A stretch of DNA of 49,350 bases from IMG/VR virus record IMGVR_UViG_2671180676_000008. One strand, given 5' to 3'. Position numbers and translations under genes: made by a program. Below the pieces are notes generated by a model. That model was given only the letters and a program-made list of their open reading frames with translations. It ran no database searches and was not told the origin of the DNA. Source of the DNA: a virus. Lineage: Duplodnaviria > Heunggongvirae > Uroviricota > Caudoviricetes. Positions 28,334 to 49,350 of the stretch are shown piece by piece (positions within the stretch are counted from its first letter, which is position 1; every line of letters begins with the position of its first letter).

Positions 28334-28798
28334 TTACTTTAAACACTGCTCGGTTATGTATTGCTGAGCACCTTCAAGTTGGGCCTGCATCATTACCAGT
28401 CGTTCCCGGAGGGTGAAATAATCCCGTTCAGCGGTGTCTGCCAGTCGGGGGGAGGCTGCATTATCCACGCCGGAGGCGGTGGTGGCTTCACGCACTGACT
28501 GACAGACTGCTTTGATGTGCAACCGACGACGACCAGCGGCAACATCATCACGCAGAGCATCATTTTCAGCTTTCGCATCAGCTAACTCCTTCGTGTATTT
28601 TGCATCGAGCGCAGCAACATCACGCTGACGCATCTGCATCTCAGTAATTGCCGCGTTCGCCAGCTTCAGTTCTCTGGCATTTTTGTCGCGCTGTTCTTTG
28701 TAGGCGATGGCGTTATCACGGTAATGATTAACACCCCATGACAGGCAGACGACGATGCAGATAACCAGAGCGGAGATAATCGCGGTTACTCTGCTCAT
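28334..28798 (-). CDS. Rz: Spanin inner-membrane subunit Rz
   Basis: 154-aa ORF recognised as lambda Rz-like from the translation. Confidence 0.9.
28393..28578 (-). CDS. Rz1: Spanin outer-membrane lipoprotein Rz1 (embedded in Rz, +1 frame)
   Basis: 61-aa ORF with lipobox LVVVGC and a proline-rich tract, fully nested in Rz. Confidence 0.85.
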
Positions 28799-29271
28799 AC
28801 CTCAATCTCTCTGACCGTTCCGCCAGCTTCTTTGAATTTTGCAATCAGACTGTCAGCCTTATGCTCGAACTGACCATAACCAGCGCCCGGCAGTGAAGCC
28901 CATATATTGCTGCAACGGTCGATAGCCTGACGGATATCACCGCGATCAATCATCGGCAAAGCGCCACGCTCTTTAATCTGCTGCAGCGCTACAGCATCCT
29001 GACTTTCTGGAGAAAAATCTTTCAGGCCAAGTTGCTTGCGGTAGGCATCCCACCAGCGTGAAAGAAGCTGGTAACGTCCAGCGGCTGTTGATTTGAGTTT
29101 CGGATTTAGCGTGACAAGTTTGCGGGGGTGATCGGAGTAATCAGTGAACAGTTCGCCACCGACAATAACATCATAACCGTGATTTCTGGTTTTCTGCCGT
29201 CCGTTATCTGTTCCTTCTGACCATGCCACCATATCAAGGAAAGCTTTACGCTGGGAATTAAGTGTCTGCAT
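28795..29271 (-). CDS. R: Endolysin (lambda R-type lytic transglycosylase)
   Basis: 158-aa ORF recognised as lambda R-like over its full length. Confidence 0.95.
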
Positions 29272-29274
29272 TAA

Positions 29275-29616
29275 TTACTCCTTATGGGCACCGAACTTGT
29301 TACCGATGACCCTCATTGCCGCACCACGAATAGCATCAACACCAATCAGCCCCACCCCACCACCAATGGCAACAGAAAGTGATTTAGGCCATCCGACATA
29401 CTCAAGCGCGGATGCAAAGGTCAGCGTCAGAGCACCACAAAGCAGAATCTCAAGCGTTTTTCGTTTCCAGCCGCCGCCACCGCCAAAATAGGCAATGCGC
29501 AAACCAGCCATAATAATTGACATAACCACTGCACCCAGCGGCGTATCTCCACGCCACCAACTTTGTAAGAGTTCCAGTAAGTCAGGCCAGGAATGAGGGG
29601 CATTGTGCATTTTCAT
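29275..29616 (-). CDS. Holin with dual-start Met-Lys-Met motif
   Basis: Three predicted TM segments and a charged C-terminus; strong GGAGGTGA SD before the MKM start; directly upstream of R. The ORF track starts at GTG 29625. Confidence 0.7.
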   Translation of the reverse strand: MKMHNAPHSWPDLLELLQSWWRGDTPLGAVVMSIIMAGLRIAYFGGGGGWKRKTLEILLCGALTLTFASALEYVGWPKSLSVAIGGGVGLIGVDAIRGAAMRVIGNKFGAHKE

Positions 29617-29962
29617 AAGCCTCACCTCCGAGAGTTCGGATGGTGCTAAGTGTAAGATTCAGGCTCTCAGGCTTGCTAACAAGAAGTCGAGGATGTTTCC
29701 GGAGCCTAACAACGAAAAAGCCCCGGGACATGCCGGGGTCAGATGGAGTGCCAGATTAAGCTTCTGGCGGTATATACTCGTGTTTGATATCGTTAAATCG
29801 CCAAAAGTAACAATTCAAACAAAGAGGATTTTTATGTCTGAAAAAACAAGCCACAAGATGAAAATAAACCTCAGCAACCCGTGGCACCAAAACCAACTCC
29901 AACACAAAGTACTACAGACTTTGCTACACGTCGTGTTTTTGTTGGAGATTCTGCCGACTCAG

Positions 29963-30532
29963 TCATTGAACATATAAAAAAACAGCCGAGATAAACATCG
30001 CCGCTACCGGAGCAAGGATGGTATACATCCTTGCTTTATCGAGACTCGTGCGGATTTTCTCATTTTCCAACAGTAACTCTCTTGCTGTATCACTCAAGTC
30101 AACAAGGCGATACCTTCGTATAAGCGGCAATAACTTATCAGGTCCTAAATATCCTGCATCAGCGAATATTTTAAAGCTCGAGGGCTCCATATCCTTATAT
30201 TTTTCATGATATAGATGATCAGGAGGGGCATTGATCAGGCCCCTAACCTTCACAGATAAACCAGTACATACCAAGTAAATGGCGCACCATGTCCATAGTA
30301 ATGTAAATGTGGTAATTCCGGCGGTGAGAAAATCGAAATTAGTTTTCTGTGTCAGCAATAAAAAAGATGAACCAATTCCAACAATCTGAATGTTCAGAAG
30401 TTTGTATCCATTCTCAACATTGGTTTTGTTAGAAAGATGAATCTCTCGTATCGTCTCTTCCCCTTGTTTTTCAAGATAATCGACGAGCTCATCATCTACT
30501 CCTAAAAAATAATCTTTAGGTAGTTCTCTCAT
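29963..30532 (-). CDS. Hypothetical membrane protein (Q-S moron)
   Basis: 189-aa AT-rich ORF with about three hydrophobic segments, between the post-Q terminator and the holin. Confidence 0.55.
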   Translation of the reverse strand: MRELPKDYFLGVDDELVDYLEKQGEETIREIHLSNKTNVENGYKLLNIQIVGIGSSFLLLTQKTNFDFLTAGITTFTLLWTWCAIYLVCTGLSVKVRGLINAPPDHLYHEKYKDMEPSSFKIFADAGYLGPDKLLPLIRRYRLVDLSDTARELLLENEKIRTSLDKARMYTILAPVAAMFISAVFLYVQ

Positions 30533-30635
30533 CTCACCTCCACATCCTGTACTGAAAACAATTTTACCAGAATGTCTCGATTCTAGGTATTCCGCCAGGA
30601 ATCGCGCTCCAGAAATGAAACATCAGGTTCGCCAG

Positions 30636-30676
30636 TACCAGAAACAACAAAACCCGCTCAATGGCGGGTTCTGGTA
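30636..30676 (-). terminator. Late-operon terminator-like compound hairpin downstream of Q
   Basis: Inner stem aacccgc/gcgggtt and outer stem taccagaa/ttctggta, with TTTGTTGTTTC on the - strand; position matches lambdoid tR-prime. Confidence 0.4.
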
Positions 30677-30753
30677 AAGTTCATGCGCTTGGTTCGCCTC
30701 GCGATACAGCTTTGCGAAGCATACCGGAATTGAAGCAGTTTATGCGTAAAAAA

Positions 30754-31296
30754 TCAAGCTATTTTTTGAGCAAATGATTCTCGCATGGGAATATATAGGG
30801 CATACTCAGCAACAGCCAACCAATTAGCAATTCGCTTTTCGCATGTGCTAAAACACCACTCAGGATGTGCATCATTTAGCAATTCAGCCATTTTGCGCTT
30901 AGTCATCCCCCGTCCTTCATACCGTTGCCGGAGGACACTAATCAATCCAGGATGCTCTGCCAGCACCTCACTTATGACTCTATCAATACATAACGCCTCT
31001 GCATCAGTACAATGCGCCAGCCAGGTCTTTTGCTTGCCATTGATCATCTCTCGCAAAAACGCTTCCAGCTCAGGTTTCTCTATTCCCGCTTTTTTCATCC
31101 TGCGCAGGGCTTCATTGACGGCTGTTTTCGTCAATTTTTTGGATGCCAGCAACTGGTTAAACATATTTCCCGTCTTACCGCCGCCAATATACGACCAGCG
31201 CCCCCACATGCGCAGTTTTCCCTGAATCCAGACACTTTCCAGCGTGGTGAGACGAAGGTGTTCCCCGCTTTTGCCTGTATTTGTTGGGTAAATCAT
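30754..31296 (-). CDS. Late antiterminator Q (phage 21/82 QuuD-like family)
   Basis: LRMWGRW segment resembles QuuD-type Q proteins; immediately upstream of the lysis genes; start taken at MIYPTN to avoid overlap. Confidence 0.6.
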   Translation of the reverse strand: MIYPTNTGKSGEHLRLTTLESVWIQGKLRMWGRWSYIGGGKTGNMFNQLLASKKLTKTAVNEALRRMKKAGIEKPELEAFLREMINGKQKTWLAHCTDAEALCIDRVISEVLAEHPGLISVLRQRYEGRGMTKRKMAELLNDAHPEWCFSTCEKRIANWLAVAEYALYIPMRESFAQKIA

Positions 31297-31583
31297 AAAT
31301 AACCTTCCTTTCTCCAGATTTCTTGTGTGCGAAAAACACCTTCTGCATGCATCAGGCGTAATTCTTCTTTGGTGTAATCGCTGGTTTTTACCCGCCCGTC
31401 GATTAAATCGTGGCATGAGCTACAGGCAATCGCTGCCTGCATATCGTGTGGTTTTGTCGCTGTTCCGCACGTCCCCGCCAGCCTGTAATGCGCCAGCACA
31501 GAGGTTTCGGGATTGTGATTGCAGTAGCCAGGGATTCTGATCTGGCACATCTGGCCTTTAGCCGCTTTACGTAAATTCACCAT
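31293..31583 (-). CDS. YbcO-like Cys/His-rich nin-region protein
   Basis: 96-aa ORF with a C..C..H..C..C..H pattern, just upstream of Q. Confidence 0.5.
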   Translation of the reverse strand: MVNLRKAAKGQMCQIRIPGYCNHNPETSVLAHYRLAGTCGTATKPHDMQAAIACSSCHDLIDGRVKTSDYTKEELRLMHAEGVFRTQEIWRKEGYL

Positions 31584-32182
31584 TACGCAAACTCCAGTAG
31601 TTGTGCGGCCACATTTTCAACTTCCTCCTGAGAGGAGAATTTACGGAACAGAATCCAGTTCCACAGCACATTCAGAACAGATTTATAAACCTGCTGAAAC
31701 TCGGTTTCGTCCATATTCGCAAACGCGATGGATTTCGCCCTGCGCCCACGGCTACCGTCCGGATAAATATGCTCGGTGTAAAATCCGGCCTGAATGGTTA
31801 CCCACTCGCGGAAAGCCTCAAACGACTTTAGCAATGCCGTATCCCGAGTTCTGCGTGTCGCAACTGTATTTAGATATTGCTCTGCGGCATCACTCAGGGC
31901 TGGTGTGTGTTCCCGACCAACTGATTCGCACAAGTAATCCACGAAACCAGACAGCAGTTCTCGTTCGCGAGGTGTGATCGCCCCACCGACCGGAGTCCAG
32001 TAATCGAATCCCAGTTGCAGGAGTTTGAAAAAACGCTTGTGGAATGCGTAGTTACGCACACGCTTAAAGTCTGCGTGTATCCACTCACCTATTTTGATTT
32101 GATGCAGAAAATCGCAACTCTCCGGCGTCGCCGGGAGAAGTAAACCAGAAGAGGTTTGTTTGACCAGTTGTATATGCGCCAT
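31583..32182 (-). CDS. Conserved lambdoid nin-region protein, function unknown
   Basis: 199-aa ORF tightly packed upstream of the YbcO-like gene. Confidence 0.5.
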   Translation of the reverse strand: MAHIQLVKQTSSGLLLPATPESCDFLHQIKIGEWIHADFKRVRNYAFHKRFFKLLQLGFDYWTPVGGAITPRERELLSGFVDYLCESVGREHTPALSDAAEQYLNTVATRRTRDTALLKSFEAFREWVTIQAGFYTEHIYPDGSRGRRAKSIAFANMDETEFQQVYKSVLNVLWNWILFRKFSSQEEVENVAAQLLEFA

Positions 32183-32462
32183 TTCTCAATCTCTCGATGG
32201 CGCAGCGCAGCAGATGCCAGTTGTTCAGGCTGACGAATAAAGTATAAATAAACTGGCTATGGTGTAAAGCCCCACATAGCATGAACAAACACTACATATC
32301 AAATAGCTGGTACAAGGATAGAAATACGACATTTATTATTAAAAACGATTAGATAAATTACATTTTAATGTTATGCAAAAGTTCTTTTTTATCATAACAT
32401 TTCAATAAAAGCATTACAGATGCAATCATCCCGTCATCATCAATTATTTAAGGTGGTTAAAC

Positions 32463-32549
32463 ATGGAAAATAACAAGTTCGCACATCTCGCTCCTTTTTT
32501 ATCCGTAATCCTTTTCGCTTGTTGTTTTATATGGGCATTATTTTTATAA
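32463..32549 (+). CDS. Candidate small hydrophobic peptide (28 aa)
   Basis: ATG preceded by AAGGTGG at good spacing; translation MENNKFAHLAPFLSVILFACCFIWALFL; in an AT-rich spacer. Not in the ORF track. Confidence 0.3.
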   Translation: MENNKFAHLAPFLSVILFACCFIWALFL

Positions 32550-32940
32550 AGTAGCCACATGATAAGTTGCTGGAATCATATTTCCCACTCAAGTCATTAA
32601 CATTTGATAAGATATATCTAAAAGGACACCTTTACATTATTTATGTGTATATAATTTATTTATATACACAGTAAAGGTATCCTGGGAAAATATTTATCGT
32701 TAAAAAATACATCATAAATAATTAAGCTGAAATTTCAGAACACAACTAATACACACAATAAGGTTCAGTAACAATAATCTATGTGGACTACATCGAGATT
32801 TTTTGATTAAACTTTAATAACTTATTCCTAACACACAGAATGCATAAACTAAAAGTAAAACAAATAGTTATACGAAAAACAACCATATTTATTATATCTT
32901 CTCCTCTAATCAACATATCAATTATGTGTTTCATAACAGC

Positions 32941-32988
32941 TTGACATAACCCTCAAAAACACGCATTTATAATACATGTTTTTGAGGG
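32941..32988 (+). promoter_or_regulatory. Promoter-like elements with a 12-bp perfect inverted repeat upstream of the yeaR-like gene
   Basis: TTGACA (32941..32946) and TATAAT (32968..32973), 21 bp apart; inverted repeat ccctcaaaaaca/tgtttttgaggg (32951..32988) encloses a GCATTTATAATACATG core and overlaps the SD. Confidence 0.4.
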
Positions 32989-32995
32989 GGTGGTT

Positions 32996-33334
32996 ATGAC
33001 ACACAAGAGAATTCCTAAAGATTGGGTAATCAAACGCTCAACTCCGTTCTTCACAAAAGAGAACGTACCTTCAGCGTTATTAACACATCATAATACAGCA
33101 GCAGGTGTTTTTGGGCAGTTGTGCGTAATGGAAGGCACTGTAACATATTATGGTTTTACTGATGAGAATGCTACTGAACCGGAGATAAAAGTAGTCATTA
33201 ATGCTGGCGCTTTTGCAACAAGCCCACCACAATACTGGCACCGTGTTGAACTAAGCGATGATGCTCAGTTTAATATTAACTTTTGGGTCGCTCCAGACTT
33301 CTCGGGCGAAAAAGTCTATAGCACCAAAAAATAG
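32996..33334 (+). CDS. YeaR-like DUF1971 family protein
   Basis: RSTPFF..K...GV.G.L.VMEG.V.YYGF.DE...EP...I.AG.FA..PP.YWH..E...D..FNI.FWVAP pattern matches E. coli YeaR as I recall it. Confidence 0.65.
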   Translation: MTHKRIPKDWVIKRSTPFFTKENVPSALLTHHNTAAGVFGQLCVMEGTVTYYGFTDENATEPEIKVVINAGAFATSPPQYWHRVELSDDAQFNINFWVAPDFSGEKVYSTKK

Positions 33335-33363
33335 ATGATCATATTAAAAATGCTTTAACAGTC

Positions 33364-33400
33364 AGACCCGGCAGGGCTATCCCCGACGGGTCTCATTTTT
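33364..33400 (+). terminator. Putative terminator downstream of the yeaR-like gene
   Basis: Stem agacccg/cgggtct with a long loop, followed by CATTTTT. Confidence 0.35.
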
Positions 33401-34096
33401 GTAAATATATTGGTTCTACATTGACAGGAGACTTCAACCATAAGAAGTAATCTGAATACTTGAGCAATAAATTTACTTAAGATTAATGAGCGCACCTTGC
33501 CGGACAAAGATAAACCAAGGTAACACCTTTTTTCTAGCCAGTATGTAATCAATCAGAAAGCCGCTCCATAAGAACAACAGCAAGACAATAAATTGCCATT
33601 ACAGCCGCAATAGCCAGCGCACATTTGAGAACCAGCACGACAACCCCCTGTATTAGACGCACACCAGTCCTGATAAATATGAGGCTGTCTCGTCAGTGAT
33701 TCAATACAACTATTGGGTATAGTTTCTGTGATTTTATTCTGTAGAAATGGAACACAACAACCAGTCACCACCAGCACTTCTTTAAATACGCCAAGTCCGA
33801 CGCAAGCTAACCTTCTAGTCCGCTTTGAGCGAAAAGCGGACAGGAACATTCTGGTTAATAGATATCAATGCTAACAAAAAAGCTCCCGATGGAGATTTTG
33901 AAACCGCTTCCACATAATGAAATAAAAGGATTTATTTCTGGTCATGCCCACACATTGACCACGTCGAAGTAAGTAGCTCCGCTTCGCGGAGTTACTTAAG
34001 ATAATTTCTATGTAGTTCCATGCTATGATTTAATTTTCAAGTTACAAAATCTAAATCTACAAATGTCCATTTGGGTGTAAAATTACACAATCCTAT

Positions 34097-36422
<2,326 letters not shown>

Positions 36423-36540
36423 TTTAATTACCTTATATATCCAAACTCTTAATTTTCTCTTTTTTACCATAGGATTAATCCAAAATAAAGACCTTGTTGA
36501 CTAAACCCTCATGTACAAAATGCACACTTACTCAAAAGGA

Positions 36541-36566
36541 TCTGGAGGCAATCTCGACCTCCATGA
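36541..36566. promoter_or_regulatory. Imperfect palindrome between the TetR-like gene and the deaminase operon (candidate operator)
   Basis: atctggaggcaatctcgacctccatgat contains the inverted repeat tggagg / cctcca. Confidence 0.3.
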
Positions 36567-36723
36567 TTTAGTTCCTAGGGATAAGCAGAAATCTAGCACT
36601 GGATTAAAATTTAAAAATAATAATCAATAGGTTATAATGGTTTTTATTCGCATCCATGGGATCTGCTGCTGCCCGCATGATGTTGGATGCGACGGCGCTG
36701 GCACGACCTCACCCGGTGAAACG

Positions 36724-37170
36724 ATGAAACGCGAAAGGGTTGTTCTTCGGGAAGGTGCAGTTGGACTTTCAATCGATGACGTTGCAAAAGAGGCTGGCGT
36801 CAGTAAGGCAACGGTAATGTACGATCATAAGTCAAAGCAAGATTTGCTCAGCGATCTCATCAGTCGCCTTATGCCAGTAGAGGAGGAACGTGTTCAGCAA
36901 GCGATAGCGGAAAGTAATAATACCCCACATCCCGCACTCTATGGGCGAATTATTTCAGCCAGTAATGCTCTCAGTCATACTGAGAGAGCAGTAGTGCTGG
37001 CGGTCAGCGAATCGTTAACTAACGATACGAATATCAGGGACACCATGCGTTCCTGCACAAACAAAGATTTGGATGAGATAAAAAGAGGACCAAAACCAGA
37101 CGTTGCCGTCCTGGTATATTTGGCGTTATCTGGTATCTACTGCCAAGAATTTTTTGATTTTTACAAATGA
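36724..37170 (+). CDS. TetR-family-like transcriptional regulator (short)
   Basis: LSIDDVAKEAGVSKATVMYDHKSKQDLL resembles a TetR N-terminal HTH; divergent from the operon; alternative start at 36637. Confidence 0.55.
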   Translation: MKRERVVLREGAVGLSIDDVAKEAGVSKATVMYDHKSKQDLLSDLISRLMPVEEERVQQAIAESNNTPHPALYGRIISASNALSHTERAVVLAVSESLTNDTNIRDTMRSCTNKDLDEIKRGPKPDVAVLVYLALSGIYCQEFFDFYK

Positions 37171-37443
37171 TCTCCTGGCGAGCGAGATAAAATTATCGAA
37201 GGCATTCGCTGTTTGTATGAATCATACCCTTACAAGTCTGAATAAATAATGTCTCCGGGAATGACATTTCATGTGCGACTAATTCGCGATATTCCTATAC
37301 GTAAAGGTCCGCTTTTGGCACAAAGTGGACAACCACGCTAGCTCTACCCTGTGCCACAAAATGTCAATTTGCATCTGAACTAATGCACTTTAATCTCGTC
37401 ACTTCAATAAATACCGAACATCCCCCTGATAAAACGACAATAT

Positions 37444-37836
37444 TCACTGCATAACTTCACTCTTCAGGCACTCGCGACAGATTATGTTCAGACGCCTGTC
37501 GTAACGGCGTATTTCTCCGTCTGGTAATGACCAGATAAGGTCAGGATCAACCACAACCGGTTTCTTCACCTTTGTCCTTGATAGTTTTTTGCGGGCGTTT
37601 TGCCAGTCTTTACGCGCCTGCTCAGACGGGAATAATCCGTAGCCTGAATTGTAAACATCACCACTGGCGACTAGTTCTCTGGCGAGAGTGCTTATGTAAT
37701 ACCTTGATGCACCGGTTTTAGCCTCCAGAGCCCGTAACGTCTCGCGACCGCTCAGAGGTACAAGTTCAACAACCTGTCCTTTAATTTTTTCTCGCTCTTC
37801 TGGTGTAAATACTTTTGCCATAGGTGCCTCCGGCAA
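37444..37836 (-). CDS. Hypothetical phage protein (130 aa)
   Basis: ORF in the post-replication region; no recognisable motif. Confidence 0.45.
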   Translation of the reverse strand: MPEAPMAKVFTPEEREKIKGQVVELVPLSGRETLRALEAKTGASRYYISTLARELVASGDVYNSGYGLFPSEQARKDWQNARKKLSRTKVKKPVVVDPDLIWSLPDGEIRRYDRRLNIICRECLKSEVMQ

Positions 37837-38598
37837 TCACTTTTCCGATGCAACATGGCGGGAAGAATCAGTAATCTGTCGTACAATATCCCTGTGCTTG
37901 TTCAACTCACGCAGCGCGGCGCAGACACGCTCCCACTTCTGGACATGATTTTTCGCCCGACGCAGTTCGCGGTTTGCCATATGCAGTGATGGTAAAACCA
38001 GGTCATCCGCTCGCGTTTCAGTAAACGATGGCAGCGACTGCACAATGTCCGCCACAGTTTCTGTTTTAATATCTTCCTGTGTTGCAGCCTCCTGTACTGG
38101 TAACGCAACACCTGCGGTCTGAGGAAAGGCCTTACCATCAGTTTCCGCTACCGATGCTGCTTTCGGCTCTGCTGGTAAATTATCGCCCGGTATGCAGTAA
38201 CGAAATTTACCGCCCTGATTTACGCGAATCAGACGACCTTTGCTGATTGCCATTGCCAGCGTTGAAGCCACTTTGCGTGATGTGGTACCAAACAATGTAG
38301 CCAGCTCATCAGCCGTTTGTGGTCCTCGTTGTTCAATCGTCGCGGTTAAATCGCACTCTGAGATTTTCGCTACTGTTGCTGTGGTGATTTCTTCCGGCAG
38401 TTCTGCCTGCGCTGGCTGTTCCTGCTGAACATTGTTATCAGCCACACGCCAGGTGTACGCGCTTTTATCAACAAAACCAGCCTTTTTCAGTTCCCATAGT
38501 TCGTTCAGCACTTCTTCACGACTGATATCAAGTCGCGCAGCAAGTTCTATGGATGTGGCTTTTCCCATTGCTTTCAGTGCGTCAAAAACAGTCTCCAT
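37837..38598 (-). CDS. Winged-helix-like phage protein
   Basis: Repeated HTH-like segments ([20 protein letters not shown]); start taken at METVFD to avoid overlap with ydaV. Confidence 0.45.
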
Positions 38599-39373: not shown

Positions 39374-40231
39374 TTACCCCCTGAAGCCTGGCGGGATCGC
39401 ACTATCCGGTAACGAGACGGTGTTAACCTGTCGGAGTAACGTCTCAGGTCGAACACCTTTCGGCGCGAACAAGCCCTGGTATTCATTGGCGATGCTGTGT
39501 CGAATCACCTGCTCAGGTGAAAAACCCTGCTGGCGGAATTTTTCCAGCTCCCGTATCGCCCCGTTAGCGCCCTGCTCCGTTCGAATCGGTTTTCGCAATG
39601 CCTGGCGAAATTCAACCCACTCACGCCAAAGCGAGACAGAAATCCAGTTCGGCAAAGTAATATCCAGAGGGTCAAACTTTTTGACACCTCGATTCCCCCG
39701 GGGGGGATTTAGGGGGGGATCTGTTTTTAGATCTTTATCTGTATCTTTATTAGTTGCCTTTGTGTTGACATCATGTTCAAACACCACTTCAACATCTGTT
39801 TGAACACCTGTTAAATTTCTCTCTTGTTTTGTTTGAACATCTGCTTCCTTTCTGCTTCTTCTGGCCTGAACAGATGCTTTTCCTGCGGCTGATTTTTTGG
39901 TTAATTTTTCCCTGACTGATGCCAGATCTTCCTCAATCCGAAGATGCACCCATTCCTCGCCGTTATCGCAAAAAAACTCCTGCAAGGATGGTTCAACATC
40001 AGCCCATCGCTCGTTAGTCAGACGGGCAATTTTTGCCAGCCTGTTTTTAGGTATTGGCTTTCCTGTTTGCCAGTAATTGAACATCAGCAACAAATACGCA
40101 CCATGCTCCTCTGCTGACAAATGCATGGTGTCAGCCAGGTAATCAGCTATGTACAGTTGCATGTATGGTAATGCGGCCATAATTGCCCCGTATGATGCTG
40201 CCCGGTGGCTTAGAATAAGCACAAACAGCAT
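39374..40231 (-). CDS. ydaU: Replication initiation-like protein YdaU
   Basis: 285-aa ORF immediately upstream of the DnaC-like loader (O/P-like pair). Confidence 0.7.
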   Translation of the reverse strand: MLFVLILSHRAASYGAIMAALPYMQLYIADYLADTMHLSAEEHGAYLLLMFNYWQTGKPIPKNRLAKIARLTNERWADVEPSLQEFFCDNGEEWVHLRIEEDLASVREKLTKKSAAGKASVQARRSRKEADVQTKQERNLTGVQTDVEVVFEHDVNTKATNKDTDKDLKTDPPLNPPRGNRGVKKFDPLDITLPNWISVSLWREWVEFRQALRKPIRTEQGANGAIRELEKFRQQGFSPEQVIRHSIANEYQGLFAPKGVRPETLLRQVNTVSLPDSAIPPGFRG

Positions 40232-40243
40232 GGAAACTTTTGC

Positions 40244-40666
40244 TTAATGAACAATGACAGAATCGTCGGAAGAACCGCCGCCGCTGAAATGCGCTTTCCG
40301 GTAAACGGCTTGGACTGCATCATCATGCGCATCAATTGCCGTACTTAACGCTTCCTGCGCCGCCAGTAATGCACGGCGTTCCAGGGTATCGAAGATGCAG
40401 AGTCGGTGACGCAGCTCGCGCGGAAGGATTGCCAGAATTGCTGGGATCAGCTTCTGAATTTTTTCTCTTTGCGTTTTCGTTTCACCTTTCAACCAACGGT
40501 GATAGATATTCTGCTGATTGTTCCAGTCCTTGCCTGGAACCAGGGGCAATTCGCCGCCCCCCTGGCGCAGATATTCTTCAGTAATTGCATTGGCTACCCA
40601 TGCCTGCCCTTTTTCGGCTGCTAGGGCAAACAACACTGATTCGATGTGCTCATGCTTGATTTTCAT
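40244..40666 (-). CDS. ydaT: YdaT-family protein (CII-like regulator)
   Basis: 140-aa ORF downstream of ydaS in the Rac immunity-region order. Confidence 0.75.
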   Translation of the reverse strand: MKIKHEHIESVLFALAAEKGQAWVANAITEEYLRQGGGELPLVPGKDWNNQQNIYHRWLKGETKTQREKIQKLIPAILAILPRELRHRLCIFDTLERRALLAAQEALSTAIDAHDDAVQAVYRKAHFSGGGSSDDSVIVH

Positions 40667-40688
40667 GAATCATTTGCCTCTTGATGTT

Positions 40689-40985
40689 TCAGGTATGATC
40701 AAATGAGGATTTGTTACTGTCATTTAGTTGCTTCACTGACATATTCTGCGAACAACATGCCGAACGTCGTAAATATGACCAGTCAATATCAGGACGAAGT
40801 TCTTCGCACAGAACCTCACCTCTTGTTGCACGTTCAATTGCTGGACATCTCTCGGCAGGCAATTGACGTACCCCTTTGATCCATTGATTTACGCTTGGAG
40901 GTGATACACCTAAAAGCCTAGCCATTGCTGATTGCCCACCGACAACAGCACAAGCTTGCTTGAATGAATAGTTCTCTTTTTTCAT
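40689..40985 (-). CDS. ydaS: Cro-like HTH regulator YdaS
   Basis: 98-aa ORF with HTH (AMARLLGVSPPSVNQW), divergent from racR. Confidence 0.85.
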   Translation of the reverse strand: MKKENYSFKQACAVVGGQSAMARLLGVSPPSVNQWIKGVRQLPAERCPAIERATRGEVLCEELRPDIDWSYLRRSACCSQNMSVKQLNDSNKSSFDHT

Positions 40986-41013
40986 CGAATGAACTCCAAA
41001 AACACACAGAAAT

Positions 41014-41095
41014 ATTAGGCGACGCCTAACGCAATTGTCAATAGGCTGTGCCTAATGCAGTAAGGGTAGGGATTGCCTAATGTAATGCGCATAGG
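41014..41095. promoter_or_regulatory. Operator/promoter region between ydaS and racR with ATTAGGC-type repeats
   Basis: 15-bp perfect palindrome TTAGGCGaCGCCTAA (41015..41029) plus further ATTAGGC/GCCTAAT half-sites. Confidence 0.5.
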
Positions 41096-41108
41096 AGAAT
41101 ATTAAGCA

Positions 41109-41585
41109 ATGCTTAGTGGTAAAGACTTAGGCCGAGCGATAGAGCAGGCCATTAACAAAAAAATCGCATCGGGATCCGTCAAATCAAAGGCGGAGGTCGC
41201 ACGCCACTTTAAAGTCCAACCACCATCAATTTATGACTGGATTAAGAAAGGCTCTATAAGTAAAGATAAACTTCCAGAATTATGGCGTTTCTTTTCTGAT
41301 GTTGTTGGTCCAGAGCATTGGGGGCTTAACGAATACCCCATACCAACCCCCACCAATTCAGATACAAAAAGTGAACTTTTAGATATAAACAACCTTTATC
41401 AAGCAGCCTCTGATGAAATAAGAGCGATTGTAGCTTTCCTGTTATCTGGAAATGCTACAGAACCAGATTGGGTTGACCACGATGTTCGCGCCTACATAGC
41501 AGCGATGGAAATGAAAGTGGGTAAGTATCTGAAAGCTCTTGAATCTGAACGGAAAAGCCAGAACATCACAAAAACTGGAACTTAA
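41109..41585 (+). CDS. racR: Prophage repressor RacR
   Basis: 158-aa ORF recognised as RacR-like; divergent from the Cro-like ydaS. Confidence 0.9.
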   Translation: MLSGKDLGRAIEQAINKKIASGSVKSKAEVARHFKVQPPSIYDWIKKGSISKDKLPELWRFFSDVVGPEHWGLNEYPIPTPTNSDTKSELLDINNLYQAASDEIRAIVAFLLSGNATEPDWVDHDVRAYIAAMEMKVGKYLKALESERKSQNITKTGT

Positions 41586-41658
41586 ACTTATATGGTCTGA
41601 CGGAAAACTCCTGGATTCCGTTATTTAACCCCCCCATCACTTTCTGCTGTCGCCATCA

Positions 41659-41723
41659 CCTATTAGGTTACGCTCAAAACATTAGGCATAGCCTATTGAC
41701 AATCAATTAGGCATTACCTATAG
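41659..41723. promoter_or_regulatory. Second cluster of ATTAGGC-type operator repeats downstream of racR
   Basis: attaggcatagcctattgac is close to the reverse complement of gtcaataggctgtgcctaat on the other side of racR. Confidence 0.45.
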
Positions 41724-41893
41724 TTCCAGCATACCACCCACCCCGCCCCACAGAACGCCGGGCAATACTTCGAGTTACCAGGCAGTGGTAAGGGGTTAAG
41801 TAGCCAGCCCGAGGCGTATGAACATGACGGCGGGATTCAAATTTTGCAGTGCAGCAGTTAGTTCCGCCACCCGGCGTTAAGGGGAGAGATAAG

Positions 41894-42028
41894 ATGGTGC
41901 ATTACGAAGTAGTTCAGTATTTGATGGATTGTTGCGGTATCACTTACAACCAGGCTGTGCAGGCTTTACGCAGCAACGACTGGGATCTCTGGCAGGCAGA
42001 AGTCGCTATACGTAGCAACAAGATGTGA
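41894..42028 (+). CDS. ydaG: Small protein YdaG (44 aa)
   Basis: Hand translation MVHYEVVQYLMDCCGITYNQAVQALRSNDWDLWQAEVAIRSNKM; not in the ORF track. Confidence 0.6.
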   Translation: MVHYEVVQYLMDCCGITYNQAVQALRSNDWDLWQAEVAIRSNKM

Positions 42029-42038
42029 GATTCGCAAA

Positions 42039-42194
42039 ATGCAAAAAATCGACCTCGGCAACAACGAATCCCTGGTGTGCGGCGTGTTCCCCAACCAGGA
42101 TGGAACGTTCACTGCCATGACGTATACCAAAAGCAAAACATTTAAAACCGAAACTGGTGCGCGCCGATGGTTGGAGAAGCACACAGTAAGCTAA
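42039..42194 (+). CDS. ydaF: Small protein YdaF (51 aa)
   Basis: Hand translation MQKIDLGNNESLVCGVFPNQDGTF...; not in the ORF track. Confidence 0.6.
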   Translation: MQKIDLGNNESLVCGVFPNQDGTFTAMTYTKSKTFKTETGARRWLEKHTVS

Positions 42195-42679
42195 CGATTA
42201 AAACGTCTACTCCTGCTGTTCCAGAATAACTTCATAAAATGGGAGTATTTTTCGGTGACGAGATAATAAGAACAGTTTGCGCTATCACTCTGATGTTGAA
42301 TGATGCCCTTCCGTTCTAATTTTTTCATAACCGGGTTACGGCAAGGAGAAGTGATAATAAGATTTCCTGTTTTAAGGAAATCTTTAAATACAGCGATTTC
42401 TTTCTCAGATAAACGAAGCAATACTCGTTGCTCTGGTAGTAATGAATAATGCTTTTGAATATGTGCTCGCAATCTTGAGAAGGAAATGGCGACCACGAAA
42501 GAAAAGGCAAAAACGATAATCTGAAAGAGCCAAGGTATTTCAGTATAAGCATTGAATGCGACAGTAAACTCTTTCGGTATCAGCCAGAGAGTGAGACCAA
42601 AAATGATAATCGTATACATAAGTCTTTCGAGTGGCTCGTTAGCAAAAAGTTTCAACAATGGAGTAAATACATCCAACAT
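42191..42679 (-). CDS. sieB: Superinfection exclusion protein SieB
   Basis: Start taken at MLDVFTPLL (162 aa) with N-terminal TM segments, recognised as SieB-like; the ORF track extends to 42802. Confidence 0.85.
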   Translation of the reverse strand: MLDVFTPLLKLFANEPLERLMYTIIIFGLTLWLIPKEFTVAFNAYTEIPWLFQIIVFAFSFVVAISFSRLRAHIQKHYSLLPEQRVLLRLSEKEIAVFKDFLKTGNLIITSPCRNPVMKKLERKGIIQHQSDSANCSYYLVTEKYSHFMKLFWNSRSRRFNR

Positions 42680-43120
42680 ATCAATAACTCTCAACTGTAA
42701 GGGTATTGAAATGTTAACACAAGCTCTCGCTGTAGGGGTATAGCCGAGACCACCGAAGCCCGGAGGTGGTGAAATAAAACCGGGCACAACACGAAGGCGC
42801 ATTTCCGATATCCATAAAGAGTCGGTCTTGTCTGTTAAATTTAAATGGTGGGAGTGCGCCTCCGGTTGTAAATAACGACATTGCTGTGTGTAGTCCTGGC
42901 GGCATCAGTTTTTTTCTTGAAGTTCGGCTGATGTCCGCCCTTTTTAAAGTGAATTTTGTGATGCGGTGAATGCGGCTAAGCGCACGTGGCACAGTTAAAA
43001 GTCATGTTAGTCCTTATTGGTTTGGGTGGGAAAGCCGACTGTAATTGTTAACTGGTTGCAGTCACCTGGAGGCACCAGACACCGCATCAACAAAGTTCAT
43101 TTGTAAAAATGGAGATAATT

Positions 43121-43342
43121 ATGATTGCACATCACTTCGGAACTGATGAAATACCACGTCAGTGTGTGACTCCTGGCGATTATGTTCTTCATGAAGGCCG
43201 GACATATATTGCCTCGGCAAACAATATTAAAAAGCGAAAACTATATATTCGTAACCTGACCACAAAAACATTCATTACTGACCGCATGATTAAAGTCTTC
43301 CTCGGTCGTGATGGTTTACCTGTAAAGGCGGAGTCATGGTGA
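43121..43342 (+). CDS. kilR: Cell-division inhibitor KilR
   Basis: 73 aa from [10 protein letters not shown] with GGAG SD, recognised as KilR-like. Confidence 0.85.
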
Positions 43343-43512
43343 TGACTAAGAAAATAAAATGTGCTTACCACCTTTGCAAAAAAGACGTTGAAGAAAGCAA
43401 AGCTATTGAAAGAATGCTTCACTTCATGCACGGGATTTTATCAAAAGACGAACCGAGAAAATATTGCAGTGAAGCTTGTGCCGAAAAAGACCAGATGGCA
43501 CATGAACTTTAA
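43336..43512 (+). CDS. ydaE: Small Cys-rich protein YdaE
   Basis: Hand translation [14 protein letters not shown]...[14 protein letters not shown] with a zinc-ribbon-like Cys pattern; not in the ORF track. Confidence 0.6.
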
Positions 43513-43586
43513 TTAATTGACTATTCGAAACTGAATTTATGCCAGAAATGGCAGGTATTCGCTCAACCTTAATTAAGGAGAAAAAC

Positions 43587-43862
43587 ATGATTACCAATTA
43601 TGAAGCCACTGTTGTAACTACCGATGACATTGTTCACGAGGTGAATCTGGAAGGAAAGCGCATTGGCTACGTAATTAAAACAGAAAATAAAGAAACCCCA
43701 TTCACTGTGGTTGATATCGATGGTCCATCAGGCAACGTAAAAACACTTGATGAAGGTGTCAAAAAAATGTGCCTGGTGCATATCGGAAAGAATCTGCCCG
43801 CAGAAAAAAAAGCCGAATTTCTGGCAACTCTAATTGCAATGAAATTAAAAGGTGAAATCTGA
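43587..43862 (+). CDS. racC: RacC protein
   Basis: Start at MITNYEATVV preceded by AAGGAG; recognised as RacC-like. Confidence 0.8.
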   Translation: MITNYEATVVTTDDIVHEVNLEGKRIGYVIKTENKETPFTVVDIDGPSGNVKTLDEGVKKMCLVHIGKNLPAEKKAEFLATLIAMKLKGEI

Positions 43863-43963
43863 AAGAAATAGCCTGCGTATGGCGCAGGCTATGAACAGTG
43901 TGTATCCGGCAAGATCATTCACTGAACAAAACGAATTTTAATCTGAGTTGAGGTTAAAAAACA

Positions 43964-46564
43964 ATGAGCACAAAACCACTCTTCCTGTTACGGAAAGCGA
44001 AAAAATCATCCGGTGAACCTGACGTCGTCCTGTGGGCAAGCAACGATTTTGAATCGACCTGTGCCACTCTGGACTACCTGATCGTTAAGTCAGGTAAAAA
44101 ACTGAGCAGCTATTTTAAAGCTGTTGCCACGAATTATCCTGTCGTTAATGACCTGCCCGCTGAAGGTGAGATCGATTTTACCTGGAGTGAACGCTATCAA
44201 CTCAGCAAAGACTCCATGACATGGGAACTAAAACCGGGAGCAGCACCAGACAACGCTCACTATCAAGGCAATACCAACGTCAACGGCGAAGACATGACTG
44301 AGATTGAGGAGAATATGCTACTCCCAATTTCTGGCCAGGAACTGCCCATTCGTTGGCTTGCTCAACACGGCAGCGAAAAACCGGTAACGCACGTTTCACG
44401 CGACGGACTCCAGGCATTACACATTGCTCGGGCTGAAGAACTACCGGCTGTTACTGCCCTGGCTGTTTCCCACAAAACCAGCCTGCTCGACCCGCTGGAA
44501 ATTCGCGAACTCCACAAACTGGTTCGTGACACTGACAAAGTTTTCCCTAATCCTGGTAATTCAAACCTGGGACTGATAACTGCTTTTTTCGAAGCATACC
44601 TGAACGCTGACTACACCGATCGAGGACTGCTGACAAAAGAGTGGATGAAGGGTAATCGTGTTTCACACATCACTCGCACGGCTTCCGGTGCTAATGCTGG
44701 CGGCGGAAACCTCACCGATCGCGGCGAAGGTTTCGTACACGATCTGACGTCACTGGCGCGCGACGTAGCCACTGGCGTACTGGCCCGTTCAATGGATCTG
44801 GACATCTATAACCTTCATCCGGCACACGCTAAACGCATTGAGGAAATTATCGCTGAAAATAAACCGCCCTTTTCTGTTTTCCGCGACAAATTCATCACCA
44901 TGCCTGGCGGGCTGGATTATTCCCGCGCCATCGTGGTTGCGTCCGTAAAAGAAGCACCAATTGGGATCGAGGTCATCCCCGCGCACGTCACTGAATATCT
45001 GAACAAAGTACTGACTGAAACCGATCATGCCAACCCTGATCCGGAAATCGTGGATATTGCCTGCGGTCGCTCCTCTGCCCCGATGCCGCAGCGAGTAACA
45101 GAAGAAGGAAAACAGGATGATGAAGAAAAACCGCAACCATCTGGAACAACGGCAGTTGAACAGGGAGAGGCTGAAACAATGGAACCGGACGCAACTGAAC
45201 ATCATCAGGACACGCAGCCGCTGGATGCTCAGTCACAGGTAAATTCTGTTGATGCGAAATATCAGGAACTGCGGGCAGAACTCCATGAAGCCCGGAAAAA
45301 CATTCCATCAAAAAATCCTGTCGATGACGATAAATTGCTTGCTGCATCACGTGGTGAATTTGTTGACGGAATTAGCGACCCGAACGATCCGAAATGGGTA
45401 AAGGGGATCCAGACTCGCGATTGTGTGTACCAGAACCAGCCAGAAACGGAAAAAACCAGCCCAGATATGAATCAACCTGAGCCAGTAGTGCAACAGGAAC
45501 CGGAAATAGCCTGCAATGCCTGCGGCCAGACTGGCGGGGATAACTGCCCTGACTGTGGTGCGGTGATGGGCGACGCAACATACCAGGAAACATTCGATGA
45601 AGAGAGTCAGGTTGAAGCTAAGGAAAATGATCCGGAGGAAATGGAAGGCGCTGAACATCCGCACAATGAGAATGCTGGCAGCGATCCGCATCGCGATTGC
45701 AGTGATGAAACTGGCGAAGTCGCAGATCCCGTAATCGTAGAAGACATAGAGCCAGGTATTTATTACGGAATTTCGAATGAGAATTACCACGCGGGTCCCG
45801 GTATCAGTAAGTCTCAGCTCGATGACATTGCTGATACTCCGGCACTATATTTGTGGCGTAAAAATGCCCCCGTGGACACCACAAAGACAAAAACGCTCGA
45901 TTTAGGAACTGCTTTCCACTGCCGGGTACTTGAACCGGAAGAATTCAGTAACCGCTTTATCGTAGCACCTGAATTTAACCGCCGTACAAACGCCGGAAAA
46001 GAAGAAGAGAAAGCGTTTCTGATGGAATGCGCAAGCACAGGAAAAACGGTTATCACTGCGGAAGAAGGCCGGAAAATTGAACTCATGTATCAAAGCGTTA
46101 TGGCTTTGCCGCTGGGGCAATGGCTTGTTGAAAGCGCCGGACACGCTGAATCATCAATTTACTGGGAAGATCCTGAAACAGGAATTTTGTGTCGGTGCCG
46201 TCCGGACAAAATTATCCCTGAATTTCACTGGATCATGGACGTGAAAACTACGGCGGATATTCAACGATTCAAAACCGCTTATTACGACTACCGCTATCAC
46301 GTTCAGGATGCATTCTACAGTGACGGTTATGAAGCACAGTTTGGAGTGCAGCCAACTTTCGTTTTTCTGGTTGCCAGCACAACTATTGAATGCGGACGTT
46401 ATCCGGTTGAAATTTTCATGATGGGCGAAGAAGCAAAACTGGCAGGTCAACAGGAATATCACCGCAATCTGCGAACCCTGTCTGACTGCCTGAATACCGA
46501 TGAATGGCCAGCTATTAAGACATTATCACTGCCCCGCTGGGCTAAGGAATATGCAAATGACTAA
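43964..46564 (+). CDS. recE: Exodeoxyribonuclease VIII (RecE)
   Basis: 866-aa ORF, same length as RecE, with an acidic central region and C-terminal nuclease-type domain. Confidence 0.9.
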
Positions 46565-47366
46565 GCAACCACCAATCGCAAAAGCCGATCTGCAAAAAAC
46601 TCAGGGAAACCGTGCACCAGCAGCAGTTAAAAATAGCGACGTGATTAGTTTTATTAACCAGCCATCAATGAAAGAGCAACTGGCAGCAGCTCTTCCACGC
46701 CATATGACGGCTGAACGTATGATCCGTATCGCCACCACAGAAATTCGTAAAGTTCCGGCGTTAGGAAACTGTGACACTATGAGTTTTGTCAGTGCGATCG
46801 TACAGTGTTCACAGCTCGGACTTGAGCCAGGTAGCGCCCTCGGTCATGCATATTTACTGCCTTTTGGTAATAAAAACGAAAAGAGCGGTAAAAAGAACGT
46901 TCAGCTAATCATTGGCTATCGCGGCATGATTGATCTGGCTCGCCGTTCTGGTCAAATCGCCAGCCTGTCAGCCCGTGTTGTCCGTGAAGGTGACGAGTTT
47001 AGCTTCGAATTTGGCCTTGATGAAAAGTTAATACACCGCCCGGGAGAAAACGAAGATGCCCCGGTTACCCACGTCTATGCTGTCGCAAGACTGAAAGACG
47101 GAGGTACTCAGTTTGAAGTTATGACGCGCAAACAGATTGAGCTGGTGCGCAGCCTGAGTAAAGCTGGTAATAACGGGCCGTGGGTAACTCACTGGGAAGA
47201 AATGGCAAAGAAAACGGCTATTCGTCGCCTGTTCAAATATTTGCCCGTATCAATTGAGATCCAGCGTGCAGTATCAATGGATGAAAAGGAACCACTGACA
47301 ATCGATCCTGCAGATTCCTCTGTATTAACCGGGGAATACAGTGTAATCGATAATTCAGAGGAATAA
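46557..47366 (+). CDS. recT: Single-strand annealing protein RecT
   Basis: Start at [13 protein letters not shown] overlapping the recE 3' end by 8 nt; recognised as RecT-like. Confidence 0.9.
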
Positions 47367-47422
47367 TTCAGCCTGGCGGTGTAATGCACCGCCAACTTGA
47401 AATATTTTTTATGAGAAAAATT

Positions 47423-47617
47423 ATGAGATATGACAATGTTAAACCATGTCCATTTTGTGGTTGTCCATCAGTAACGGTGAAAGCCATTTCAGGATATTAC
47501 CGAGCGAAGTGTAACGGATGCGAATCCCGAACCGGTTATGGTGGAAGTGAAAAAGAAGCACTCGAAAGATGGAATAAACGAACCGCTGGAAATAATAATG
47601 GAGGTGTTCATGTATAA
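47423..47617 (+). CDS. ralR: Restriction alleviation protein Lar/RalR
   Basis: MRYDNVKPCPFCGCPS...CNGCESRTG zinc-ribbon-like small protein, recognised as RalR-like. Confidence 0.8.
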   Translation: MRYDNVKPCPFCGCPSVTVKAISGYYRAKCNGCESRTGYGGSEKEALERWNKRTAGNNNGGVHV

Positions 47618-47819
47618 AATTACCGCCACTATTGAAAAGGAAGGTGGCACTCCTACTAACTGGACAAGATATTCAAAATCTAAACTAACGAAATCAGAAT
47701 GCGAAAAAATGCTCTCAGGTAAAAAAGAAGCAGGCGTTTCCAGAGAGCAGAAAGTAAAACTGATAAATTTTAATTGCGAGAAACTTCAGTCCTCGAGAAT
47801 TGCATTGTATTCAAATTAA
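47610..47819 (+). CDS. ydaC: Small protein YdaC
   Basis: Start at MYKITATIEK preceded by GGAGG; sits between ralR and xis. Confidence 0.7.
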   Translation: MYKITATIEKEGGTPTNWTRYSKSKLTKSECEKMLSGKKEAGVSREQKVKLINFNCEKLQSSRIALYSN

Positions 47820-47897
47820 AACTTCATAGCTGATTATTAATAATCAACATCGGGCGTCAATTTCAGTCTAACATTGGCGCCTGCCAGAGGTGATGCG

Positions 47898-48113
47898 ATG
47901 GCACAAGTAATCTTTAATGAAGAGTGGATGGTTGAATACGGCCTGATGCTTCGCACTGGTCTGGGGGCCAGACAAATTGAAGCATACCGCCAGAACTGTT
48001 GGGTGGAGGGCTTCCACTTCAAACGAGTATCTCCTTTAGGTAAGCCAGACAGCAAACGAGGGATTATCTGGTACAACTATCCAAAGATAAATCAGTTTAT
48101 CAAAGACTCATGA
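47898..48113 (+). CDS. xisR: Excisionase-like protein (YdaQ/XisR)
   Basis: 71 aa from [10 protein letters not shown] with GAGG SD; directly upstream of the integrase. Confidence 0.75.
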
Positions 48114-48114
48114 T

Positions 48115-49350
48115 ATGTCTAAATTACCAACAGGTGTCGAGATTAGAGGTAGATACATTCGCATCTGGTTCATGTTTCGAGGAAAACGATGTCGGGAAAC
48201 ATTAAAAGGCTGGGAGATTACAAACAGTAATATTAAAAAGGCCGGAAATTTAAGAGCGCTGATAGTTCATGAAATAAACTCCGGTGAATTTGAGTATTTA
48301 AGACGTTTTCCCCAGTCCAGCACTGGGGCAAAAATGGTGACAACGAGAGTCATAAAAACGTTCGGAGAGCTTTGTGATATCTGGACAAAAATTAAAGAGA
48401 CAGAGTTAACAACAAACACAATGAAGAAAACGAAATCACAATTAAAAACACTCAGAATAATAATTTGTGAAAGTACCCCGATATCACATATTCGTTATAG
48501 CGATATCTTAAACTACCGGAATGAACTGCTGCATGGAGAAACGCTTTACCTGGATAATCCAAGATCCAACAAAAAAGGAAGAACCGTGCGCACAGTTGAT
48601 AACTATATCGCCCTGCTCTGTTCGCTGTTGCGTTTTGCGTATCAGTCGGGATTTATATCAACCAAACCATTTGAAGGAGTAAAAAAATTACAGCGAAACA
48701 GAATAAAGCCTGATCCGTTATCTAAAACAGAATTCAATGCATTAATGGAAAGTGAAAAAGGACAGAGCCAGAACTTGTGGAAATTTGCCGTTTACTCAGG
48801 ACTTCGTCACGGGGAACTGGCAGCTCTGGCGTGGGAGGATGTGGATCTCGAAAAGGGAATAGTGAATGTCAGAAGAAACCTGACGATACTTGATATGTTC
48901 GGTCCCCCAAAAACAAATGCCGGGATCCGAACAGTAACACTACTGCAGCCTGCTCTTGAAGCACTGAAGGAGCAATACAAACTGACCGGGCATCATCGCA
49001 AAAGCGAAATCACCTTTTATCATCGGGAGTACGGCAGAACCGAAAAGCAAAAACTGCATTTTGTTTTCATGCCCAGGGTGTGTAACGGAAAACAAAAACC
49101 TTATTACTCGGTAAGCAGTTTGGGGGCAAGGTGGAATGCAGCAGTAAAACGTGCTGGTATTCGCCGCCGTAATCCGTACCATACGCGGCATACTTTTGCC
49201 TGCTGGCTGTTGACGGCAGGAGCGAACCCGGCATTTATAGCCAGCCAAATGGGGCATGAAACTGCGCAGATGGTGTATGAAATTTACGGTATGTGGATTG
49301 ATGACATGAACGACGAACAGATAGCCATGTTGAATGCGCGGTTATCGTAG
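48115..49350 (+). CDS. intR: Tyrosine integrase
   Basis: 411-aa ORF with tyrosine-recombinase C-terminal motifs (HTRHTFACWLL...MGHE...Y); ends at the window edge. Confidence 0.9.
   Translation: MSKLPTGVEIRGRYIRIWFMFRGKRCRETLKGWEITNSNIKKAGNLRALIVHEINSGEFEYLRRFPQSSTGAKMVTTRVIKTFGELCDIWTKIKETELTTNTMKKTKSQLKTLRIIICESTPISHIRYSDILNYRNELLHGETLYLDNPRSNKKGRTVRTVDNYIALLCSLLRFAYQSGFISTKPFEGVKKLQRNRIKPDPLSKTEFNALMESEKGQSQNLWKFAVYSGLRHGELAALAWEDVDLEKGIVNVRRNLTILDMFGPPKTNAGIRTVTLLQPALEALKEQYKLTGHHRKSEITFYHREYGRTEKQKLHFVFMPRVCNGKQKPYYSVSSLGARWNAAVKRAGIRRRNPYHTRHTFACWLLTAGANPAFIASQMGHETAQMVYEIYGMWIDDMNDEQIAMLNARLS

Follow-up and report, generated by a model that had tools for sequence, protein, structure and literature searches.

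A near-K-12 early-left region in a full-size relative of the Rac prophage, with a candidate left promoter and conserved leader RNA

The closest described relatives of the locus considered here are the Rac prophage found in Escherichia coli K-12 and the pL operon of phage lambda. In both, the repressor gene is followed downstream by a leftward early operon, and both share an antisense sieB, kil in first place, overlapping exonuclease and annealase genes, a small gene of the restriction-alleviation type, and xis and int at the end (in lambda, N-ral-sieB (antisense)-ea10-cIII-kil-gam-bet-exo-...-xis-int). The Rac region differs from that of lambda in being without homologs of N, cIII, and gam and in having RecE and RecT, which belong to different families, in place of Exo and Bet. 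Here, we analyzed a window of 49,350 nucleotides (nt) from a virus record (IMGVR_UViG_2671180676_000008; positions 1-49350) that contains a full-size (≈49 kb) Rac-like prophage, focusing on the stretch that runs from sieB through kilR, recE, and recT to ralR (42191-47617). A sequence-only reading had described this stretch as an early-left operon packed with exclusion and anti-restriction functions, with all five genes intact.

The stretch is almost certainly the canonical early-left region (P_L type) found in the lambdoid prophage Rac, here essentially as the K-12 allele and housed within a full-size Rac relative. In a base-by-base comparison of positions 39500-49350 with the Rac prophage of K-12 MG1655 (NZ_CP032667.1), the region was 100% covered and only 2 nt differed: 44136 (A/T), which gives the substitution F58Y in RecE, and 47585 (G/A), which gives T55A in RalR. 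From sieB (b1353) to intR (b1345), the gene content, order, strands, overlaps, and the small RNA (sRNA) RalA are all as in MG1655. Among the strains compared, F58Y is absent from K-12, MS15047, and BR1220, whereas the T55A allele is common to MS15047 and BR1220. A megablast search with positions 41000-49350 against all complete E. coli genomes returned full-length matches of ≈100% identity, including K-12 MG1655, C600, and J53, and at least 80% of this segment is carried by 1458 of 5426 genomes (≈27%).

The gene coordinates are those of the RefSeq K-12 annotation transferred to the window, with each translation checked, and the listing of open reading frames (ORFs) and the family scans covered positions 40000-49350. 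Alignment with the K-12 Rac proteins revealed no frameshift or truncation, F58Y and T55A being the only substitutions, so the earlier claim that SieB, KilR, RalR (Lar), RecE, and RecT are present and intact holds at every stated place, by translation and by family score as well as by alignment. Curated family cut-offs are widely surpassed by KilR, RecE, RecT, RalR, YdaE, and RacC (NCBIfam) and by SieB (Pfam). The identity and intactness of all the genes, their strands, the recE/recT overlap, RalA with its pairing site, and the operator-like sites are thus direct observations on this DNA; the biochemical functions, and the joint derepression of the genes on depletion of RacR, are taken from the literature on K-12, from which the region stands 2 nt apart. 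The sieB-kilR-recE-recT-ralR stretch is already known; it is ordinary, textbook Rac.

The recombination genes illustrate this well. RecE was said to be full length, at 866 amino acids (aa), and it is: the NF007259 equivalog model matches residues 1-866 with 1828 bits (cut-off 1269), taking in both the N-terminal Exonuc_VIII region (PF06630), in which F58Y is located, and the C-terminal PDDEXK nuclease domain (PF12684). Residues 605-866 align to the nuclease domain of PDB entry 3H4R with an E value of 3e-180 and a single substitution. RecT scores 464.5 bits against the NF007351 equivalog (cut-off 296), matches PF03837, and has an exonuclease gene upstream; its only solved relative is the Listeria RecT, 7UB2. 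Reading the recE/recT junction directly, GCAAATGACTAAGCAA, we found the claimed 8-nt overlap to be exact, with ATGACTAA at 46557-46564 and the frames ...AAT GAC TAA against ATG ACT AAG. RecE would act as a 5'-3' double-stranded DNA (dsDNA) exonuclease and RecT as an annealing protein, together making the two-component recombinase used in recombineering, and translation of RecT would be coupled to that of RecE through the ATGACTAA overlap.

SieB had been counted as a member of the operon, and this is where that description fails. The gene stands alone on the minus strand, every other named gene lying on the plus; it converges with ydaF, their ends overlapping by 4 nt, and diverges from kilR over a 441-bp spacer. 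Lying on the opposite strand, it is a separate gene, antisense to the operon and not co-transcribed with it, a layout shared with lambda, whose minus-strand pL operon encloses a plus-strand sieB between N and ral. Membership of the superinfection-exclusion B family is indicated by PF14163 (108.4 bits against a cut-off of 26, over profile positions 1-142 of 147), by phrog_6399 (E value 5e-70), and by the antisense location in an early-left region adjoining the immunity region. The protein is only 27% identical to lambda SieB (BLASTP, E value 8e-14). We preferred the 162-aa RefSeq start because the Pfam and PHROG matches begin at this shorter form; a 203-aa extended version, reaching to 42802, is merely the longest ORF. 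Lambda SieB acts like that of P22. In P22, SieB-type exclusion that aborts the lytic growth of superinfecting lambdoid phages is documented (PMC10883804). By homology, Rac SieB, placed as in lambda and P22, would be expressed in the lysogen from a presumed promoter of its own and would likewise abort the lytic growth of superinfecting lambdoid phages.

KilR matches NF008465, "FtsZ inhibitor protein," over its full length (residues 1-73) with 159.1 bits against a cut-off of 92. The identical K-12 protein inhibits both cell division and elongation (PMC12482147), and the protein encoded here would block FtsZ and cell elongation. The earlier grouping of KilR with exclusion and anti-restriction functions does not stand, as the protein is an inhibitor of host division and elongation. 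The start of ydaE overlaps the kilR stop by 1 nt.

RalR presents a more divided picture. Guo et al. [quoted passage not shown] Every element of that pair is found in the window. RalR surpasses the NF007260 equivalog cut-off (164 bits against 113), and residues 14, 37, 39, 49, 51, and 52, at which changes reduce toxicity (PMC4041452), are unchanged; T55A, the sole difference from the published system, lies neither in the Lar domain match nor in the pairing site. RalA, adjacent and on the opposite strand, is full length (model positions 1-179, 225 bits against an Rfam gathering score of 170), and its 16-nt complementarity to ralR is intact: the 16-mers at 47546-47561 and 47718-47733 agree with the description in PMC4041452. 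An inverted-repeat search aimed at the RalR/RalA pairing gave no result, since the two 16-mers stand on the plus strand as direct repeats; we located them by reading the sequence. RalR would act as a DNase toxin whose translation the convergent, Hfq-dependent RalA would block through the 16-nt pairing. Unlike lambda Ral, which precedes the recombinase genes, Rac RalR follows them, and it is unrelated to Ral (24% identity; PMC4041452). For rcbA (ydaC), the ORF antisense to ralA, a protein product has been doubted, none having been detected (PMC4041452).

The early-left genes form a run longer than the operon originally described. The gene identities stand, and the unit extends from ydaG and ydaF upstream, through kilR, ydaE, racC, recE, recT, and ralR, to rcbA/ralA, xisR, and intR, the stop codon of intR coinciding exactly with the end of the window. 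RacR is described as the repressor of Rac (PMC5700373, PMC9638921), with an operator consensus of (T/A)TAGGC-n3-GCCTA(T/A) (PMC9638921). Its perturbation by a C protein raised expression of ydaC, kilR, and ralA more than 70-fold and that of ydaF, ydaG, ydaE, and racC ≈40-fold (PMC6765115). The RacR motif occurs 6 times in the 49-kb window, where 1.87 matches are expected by chance, and all six adjoin racR: four are in the racR-ydaS intergenic region and two are at 41681-41722. In the Rac literature that we found, the published operators are those of racR-ydaS only.

The two further sites bracket a promoter-like sequence and overlap its -35 and -10 hexamers. This near-consensus sigma-70 sequence, TTGACA-17-TATAGT, lies 110 bp past racR, agrees with the consensus at 11 of 12 positions, and is the best promoter-like site in 40600-49350. 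The operator-promoter block is nearly invariant in prophages that are 81-83% identical across the spacer, while the sequence 5' of the block drifts. We propose that 41681-41724 is the left operator and promoter (O_L/P_L) of Rac, with RacR binding predicted from the motif. In a lysogen, RacR would keep leftward early transcription off; on loss of RacR, the candidate P_L would drive one long plus-strand transcript comprising the leader RNA described below, ydaG, ydaF, the antisense of sieB, kilR, ydaE, racC, recE, recT, ralR, (rcbA), xisR, and intR, and XisR and IntR would excise the prophage. The exact promoter, the single transcript, and the activity of SieB are points that we infer.

Several observations weigh against this scheme. 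Across the promoter scan as a whole, sites were no more numerous than in shuffled sequence. A strong hairpin, GC-rich and of 11 bp, lies 5 nt past the stop of racC, with 71 nt separating it from recE, and speaks against a single transcript. It has no U-tract on the plus strand and was also flagged by a terminator scan, on the minus strand. It may be an attenuator of read-through into recE or a processing site. Finally, recET of K-12 is classically silent in the absence of sbcA mutations (PMC9504249), a silence that attenuation at the hairpin would fit.

Other readings of the region must be set against the one proposed. That sieB, kilR, recE, recT, and ralR make up one co-transcribed operon with a common theme of exclusion and anti-restriction is suggested by the adjacency of the genes and by the SieB and Lar family signatures, yet it can hardly be right: the strand of sieB, opposite to that of the others as in lambda, refutes it for that gene, KilR inhibits division and elongation, and the PADLOC-DB v2 models match none of SieB, KilR, RalR, RecE, RecT, RacC, and YdaE. 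With none of the five named proteins in PADLOC, we also rejected the idea of a defense island. A narrower form of the anti-restriction reading deserves more credit. RalR might act mainly in Lar-type restriction alleviation, shielding recombinant or phage DNA that lacks modification against type I restriction, with its toxicity an artifact of overexpression. By sequence, RalR does belong to the Lar family (PF14354, 52.7 bits against a cut-off of 28.6, E value 5e-14; TIGR03655, 55.3 bits against 39.6), so this part of the earlier claim stands; genetic studies by King and Murray (1995) and by Toothman (1981), as cited in PMC4041452, point the same way, and a location directly after recET suits protection of recombination products. 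Against it are the conservation here of RalA and the pairing site, the characterization of the protein as a DNase toxin, and the statement of those authors that RalR is no inhibitor of restriction modification (PMC4041452). King and Murray (1995), as cited, and PMC4041452 conflict, the anti-restriction role is disputed, and we regard restriction alleviation as a possible but less favored main function.

Alternatively, the region might be a silent relic without any contribution in this host, much like recET of wild-type K-12, whose activity requires the sbcA mutations mentioned above; repression by RacR is also tight. We consider this improbable, since all the ORFs are intact, many lineages carry a nearly invariant sequence, a fall in RacR strongly induces the genes (PMC6765115), and complete morphogenesis, lysis, and replication modules are still present. 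Given those complete modules, the early-left operon proposed here is probably of use in a real lytic cycle.

Immediately downstream of the candidate P_L, and so outside the coordinates covered by the sequence-only reading, lies a conserved structured sequence of ≈105 nt. We place at about even the chance that an undescribed structured RNA of wide conservation, possibly a new cis-acting control element, stands at the start of the early-left transcript of Rac, that of K-12 included. In a blastn search with 41560-41900, thousands of E. coli genomes shared homology that begins right past the -10 box, and this holds in prophages with unrelated repressors, namely those of O104:H4 C227-11, phage Evi, and the phage deposited as Actinobacillus pPE4. 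A core-pattern search located copies in Serratia, Superficieibacter, E. ruysiae, and Shigella and many in Arsenophonus and Phlomobacter, and a scan of viral contigs added more than 120 further loci. In every copy context, across lambdoid prophages of several Enterobacterales genera (Escherichia, Serratia, Superficieibacter, Arsenophonus, and Phlomobacter) and the "Actinobacillus" phage, a P_L-type promoter precedes the leader by a few nucleotides. When divergent copies were folded independently by minimum free energy, the same architecture emerged: a closing helix, a long hairpin whose 15-nt loop (CAAUACnnCGAGUUA) is invariant, a short GCC/GGC hairpin, and joining strands that are likewise invariant. 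With a covariance model trained on Arsenophonus copies alone, the Rac leader (41735-41839) scores 68 bits, with an E value of 3e-18.

Covariation statistics were computed on a model-guided alignment of 27 distinct sequences; an 18-sequence alignment gave similar values. With the caution that the alignment is fitted to the model and that many of its sequences are closely related, paired cells made up 90.5%, against 72.5% in shuffled alignments (reached in 0 of 500) and 30-43% in slid controls; 15 of 22 pairs showed double changes, against 11.0 when shuffled (reached in 1 of 500) and 6-8 in slid controls; and the covariation score was 0.365, against 0.145 when shuffled and at most 0.118 in slid controls. 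G-U pairs favor the plus strand. On the same alignment, RNAalifold independently recovered helices P1 and P4 and did not recover P0 and P3. A plain MAFFT alignment let it recover the invariant GCC/GGC hairpin alone, owing to misalignment of the variable stems, and the model-guided alignment was used instead. A tertiary pairing between the invariant loop and an RUAY joiner was dropped, since the joiner varies and the loop does not.

The leader appears to be new to the databases and literature that we searched. The 4227 covariance models of Rfam 15 gave, for 41600-42100, only two chance-level microRNA matches at E ≤ 10, and a literature search for the leader sequence turned up no paper. The candidate O_L/P_L is likewise absent from the Rac literature found and would be so far undescribed. 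The nearest analogy is putL of HK022 (PMC9378689), also a structured RNA directly downstream of P_L in a lambdoid phage. The two differ in form, the leader being a closed three-helix junction of ≈105 nt and putL two stem-loops of ≈70 nt, and we discarded an HK022-type put element as an explanation, there being no similarity by pattern or by model (HK022, 12 bits, E value 0.78). The leader model found no copy in HK022 or in lambda positions 27500-38500 and no second (P_R) copy in the window, and in Arsenophonus the leader coexists with nut sites and N-like genes. In that genus, it sits between the repressor gene and a nut site (boxA, CGCTCTTTAAC, and a boxB-like hairpin), which is followed by a gene with an arginine-rich, N-like N terminus. 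The P_L-leader element therefore occurs both in phages with N and in phages without it, and its coexistence with nut and N argues against simple redundancy. The leader could be a processivity or antitermination RNA, a transcript-stabilizing RNA, or an RNA that binds a ligand or protein.

Two further observations concern the leader and its surroundings. In an Arsenophonus triatominarum sequence (879-4027), two immunity modules stand in tandem and in the same orientation; in each, a cro-like gene and a repressor gene are accompanied by the leader RNA, boxA/boxB, and an N-like gene whose N terminus is arginine-rich. These tandem modules explain the paired leader matches 1.9-2.7 kb apart in Arsenophonus. 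In the window, a second conserved block (41845-41893, plus strand; GTTCCGC..CCCGGCGTTAAGGGGA) follows the leader. The G-run at its 3' end shares bases with the Shine-Dalgarno sequence belonging to the first ORF, which is ydaG here and a DUF1391 gene elsewhere, and the block could be a hairpin that sequesters this sequence. The features of the region are collected in Table 1.

Table 1. Features of the early-left region and its flanks, with positions in the 49,350-nt window (ssDNA, single-stranded DNA; dG, folding free energy).
Feature	Position	Strand	Size and evidence
racR, prophage repressor (cI analog)	41109-41585	+	158 aa; identical to K-12 WP_000948459.1
Two candidate RacR operators (O_L-like), ATTAGGCATAGCCTATT and ATTAGGCATTACCTATA	41681-41697, 41706-41722		match to published RacR consensus
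Candidate early-left promoter (P_L-like), TTGACA-17-TATAGT	41696-41724	+	promoter scan
Conserved structured leader RNA (candidate)	41735-41839	+	covariance model, covariation
ydaG	41894-42028	+	44 aa; identical to K-12 WP_000233809.1; phrog_14709
ydaF (DUF1391)	42039-42194	+	51 aa; PF07151, E value 1.9e-28; K-12 annotation
sieB, superinfection-exclusion B family membrane protein	42191-42679	-	162 aa; identical to K-12 WP_001312793.1
kilR, FtsZ/cell-shape inhibitor	43121-43342	+	73 aa; NF008465; phrog_294; identical to K-12 WP_000560225.1
ydaE, Cys-rich	43342-43512	+	56 aa; NF041288, 86 bits against cut-off 35; K-12 annotation
racC	43587-43862	+	91 aa; NF007306, 206 bits against cut-off 171; K-12 annotation
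GC-rich 11-bp hairpin	43868-43892	+	dG -18.8 kcal/mol, z -4.5
recE, exonuclease VIII	43964-46564	+	866 aa; NF007259 equivalog
recT, ssDNA annealing protein	46557-47366	+	269 aa; NF007351 equivalog; PF03837; identical to K-12 WP_000166319.1
ralR (lar), Lar-family zinc-ribbon protein, DNase toxin	47423-47617	+	64 aa; NF007260 equivalog
16-nt RalA target inside ralR, AAGTGAAAAAGAAGCA	47546-47561	+	read in sequence; partner at 47718-47733
RalA sRNA, RalR antitoxin	47616-47794	-	Rfam RF02694
rcbA/ydaC ORF, antisense to ralA	47610-47819	+	69 aa; PF06688; K-12 annotation
xisR, excisionase	47898-48113	+	71 aa; PF06806; K-12 annotation
intR, tyrosine integrase	48115-49350	+	411 aa; identical to K-12 WP_000040852.1

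Beyond the early-left region, the window carries terminase, portal, capsid, tail, tail-fiber, lysis, and replication genes together with trkG, and the closest complete genomes are BR1220, which has an extra IS3 and sitD at its left flank, and MS15047. Whereas the Rac of K-12 is a 23-kb remnant, this relative of ≈49 kb has full structural genes and an operon between the replication and late genes. The latter, on the minus strand, encodes a SIR2 protein (34097-34891), a noncanonical purine nucleoside triphosphate pyrophosphatase of the inosine triphosphatase (ITPase)-like type (34891-35445), and an adenosine deaminase (ORF at 35442-36470); with a divergent TetR gene (36637-37170), the whole spans 34097-37170. 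PADLOC matched domains only, SIR2 (ThsA-like, 8.9e-32) and the deaminase (CARF_ADA, 2.9e-36), so the operon represents no catalogued complete system. Near the left end of the window, positions 256-454 on the minus strand match the IS009 sRNA family of Rfam (RF02111) with 229 bits.

Taken by itself, the stretch from sieB to ralR matters little, as the finding re-identifies a well-known prophage region, the source of RecET recombineering, of KilR, and of the RalR/RalA pair. Its practical value lies in correct annotation and in the reminder that the prophage around it is a full-size, possibly inducible relative of Rac. A short follow-up may be merited by the only possibly new items, the leader RNA and the candidate O_L/P_L. 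If true, a role for the leader would bear on the expression of kilR-recET-ralR-xis-int in phages without N and could explain how a long operon lacking N is controlled.

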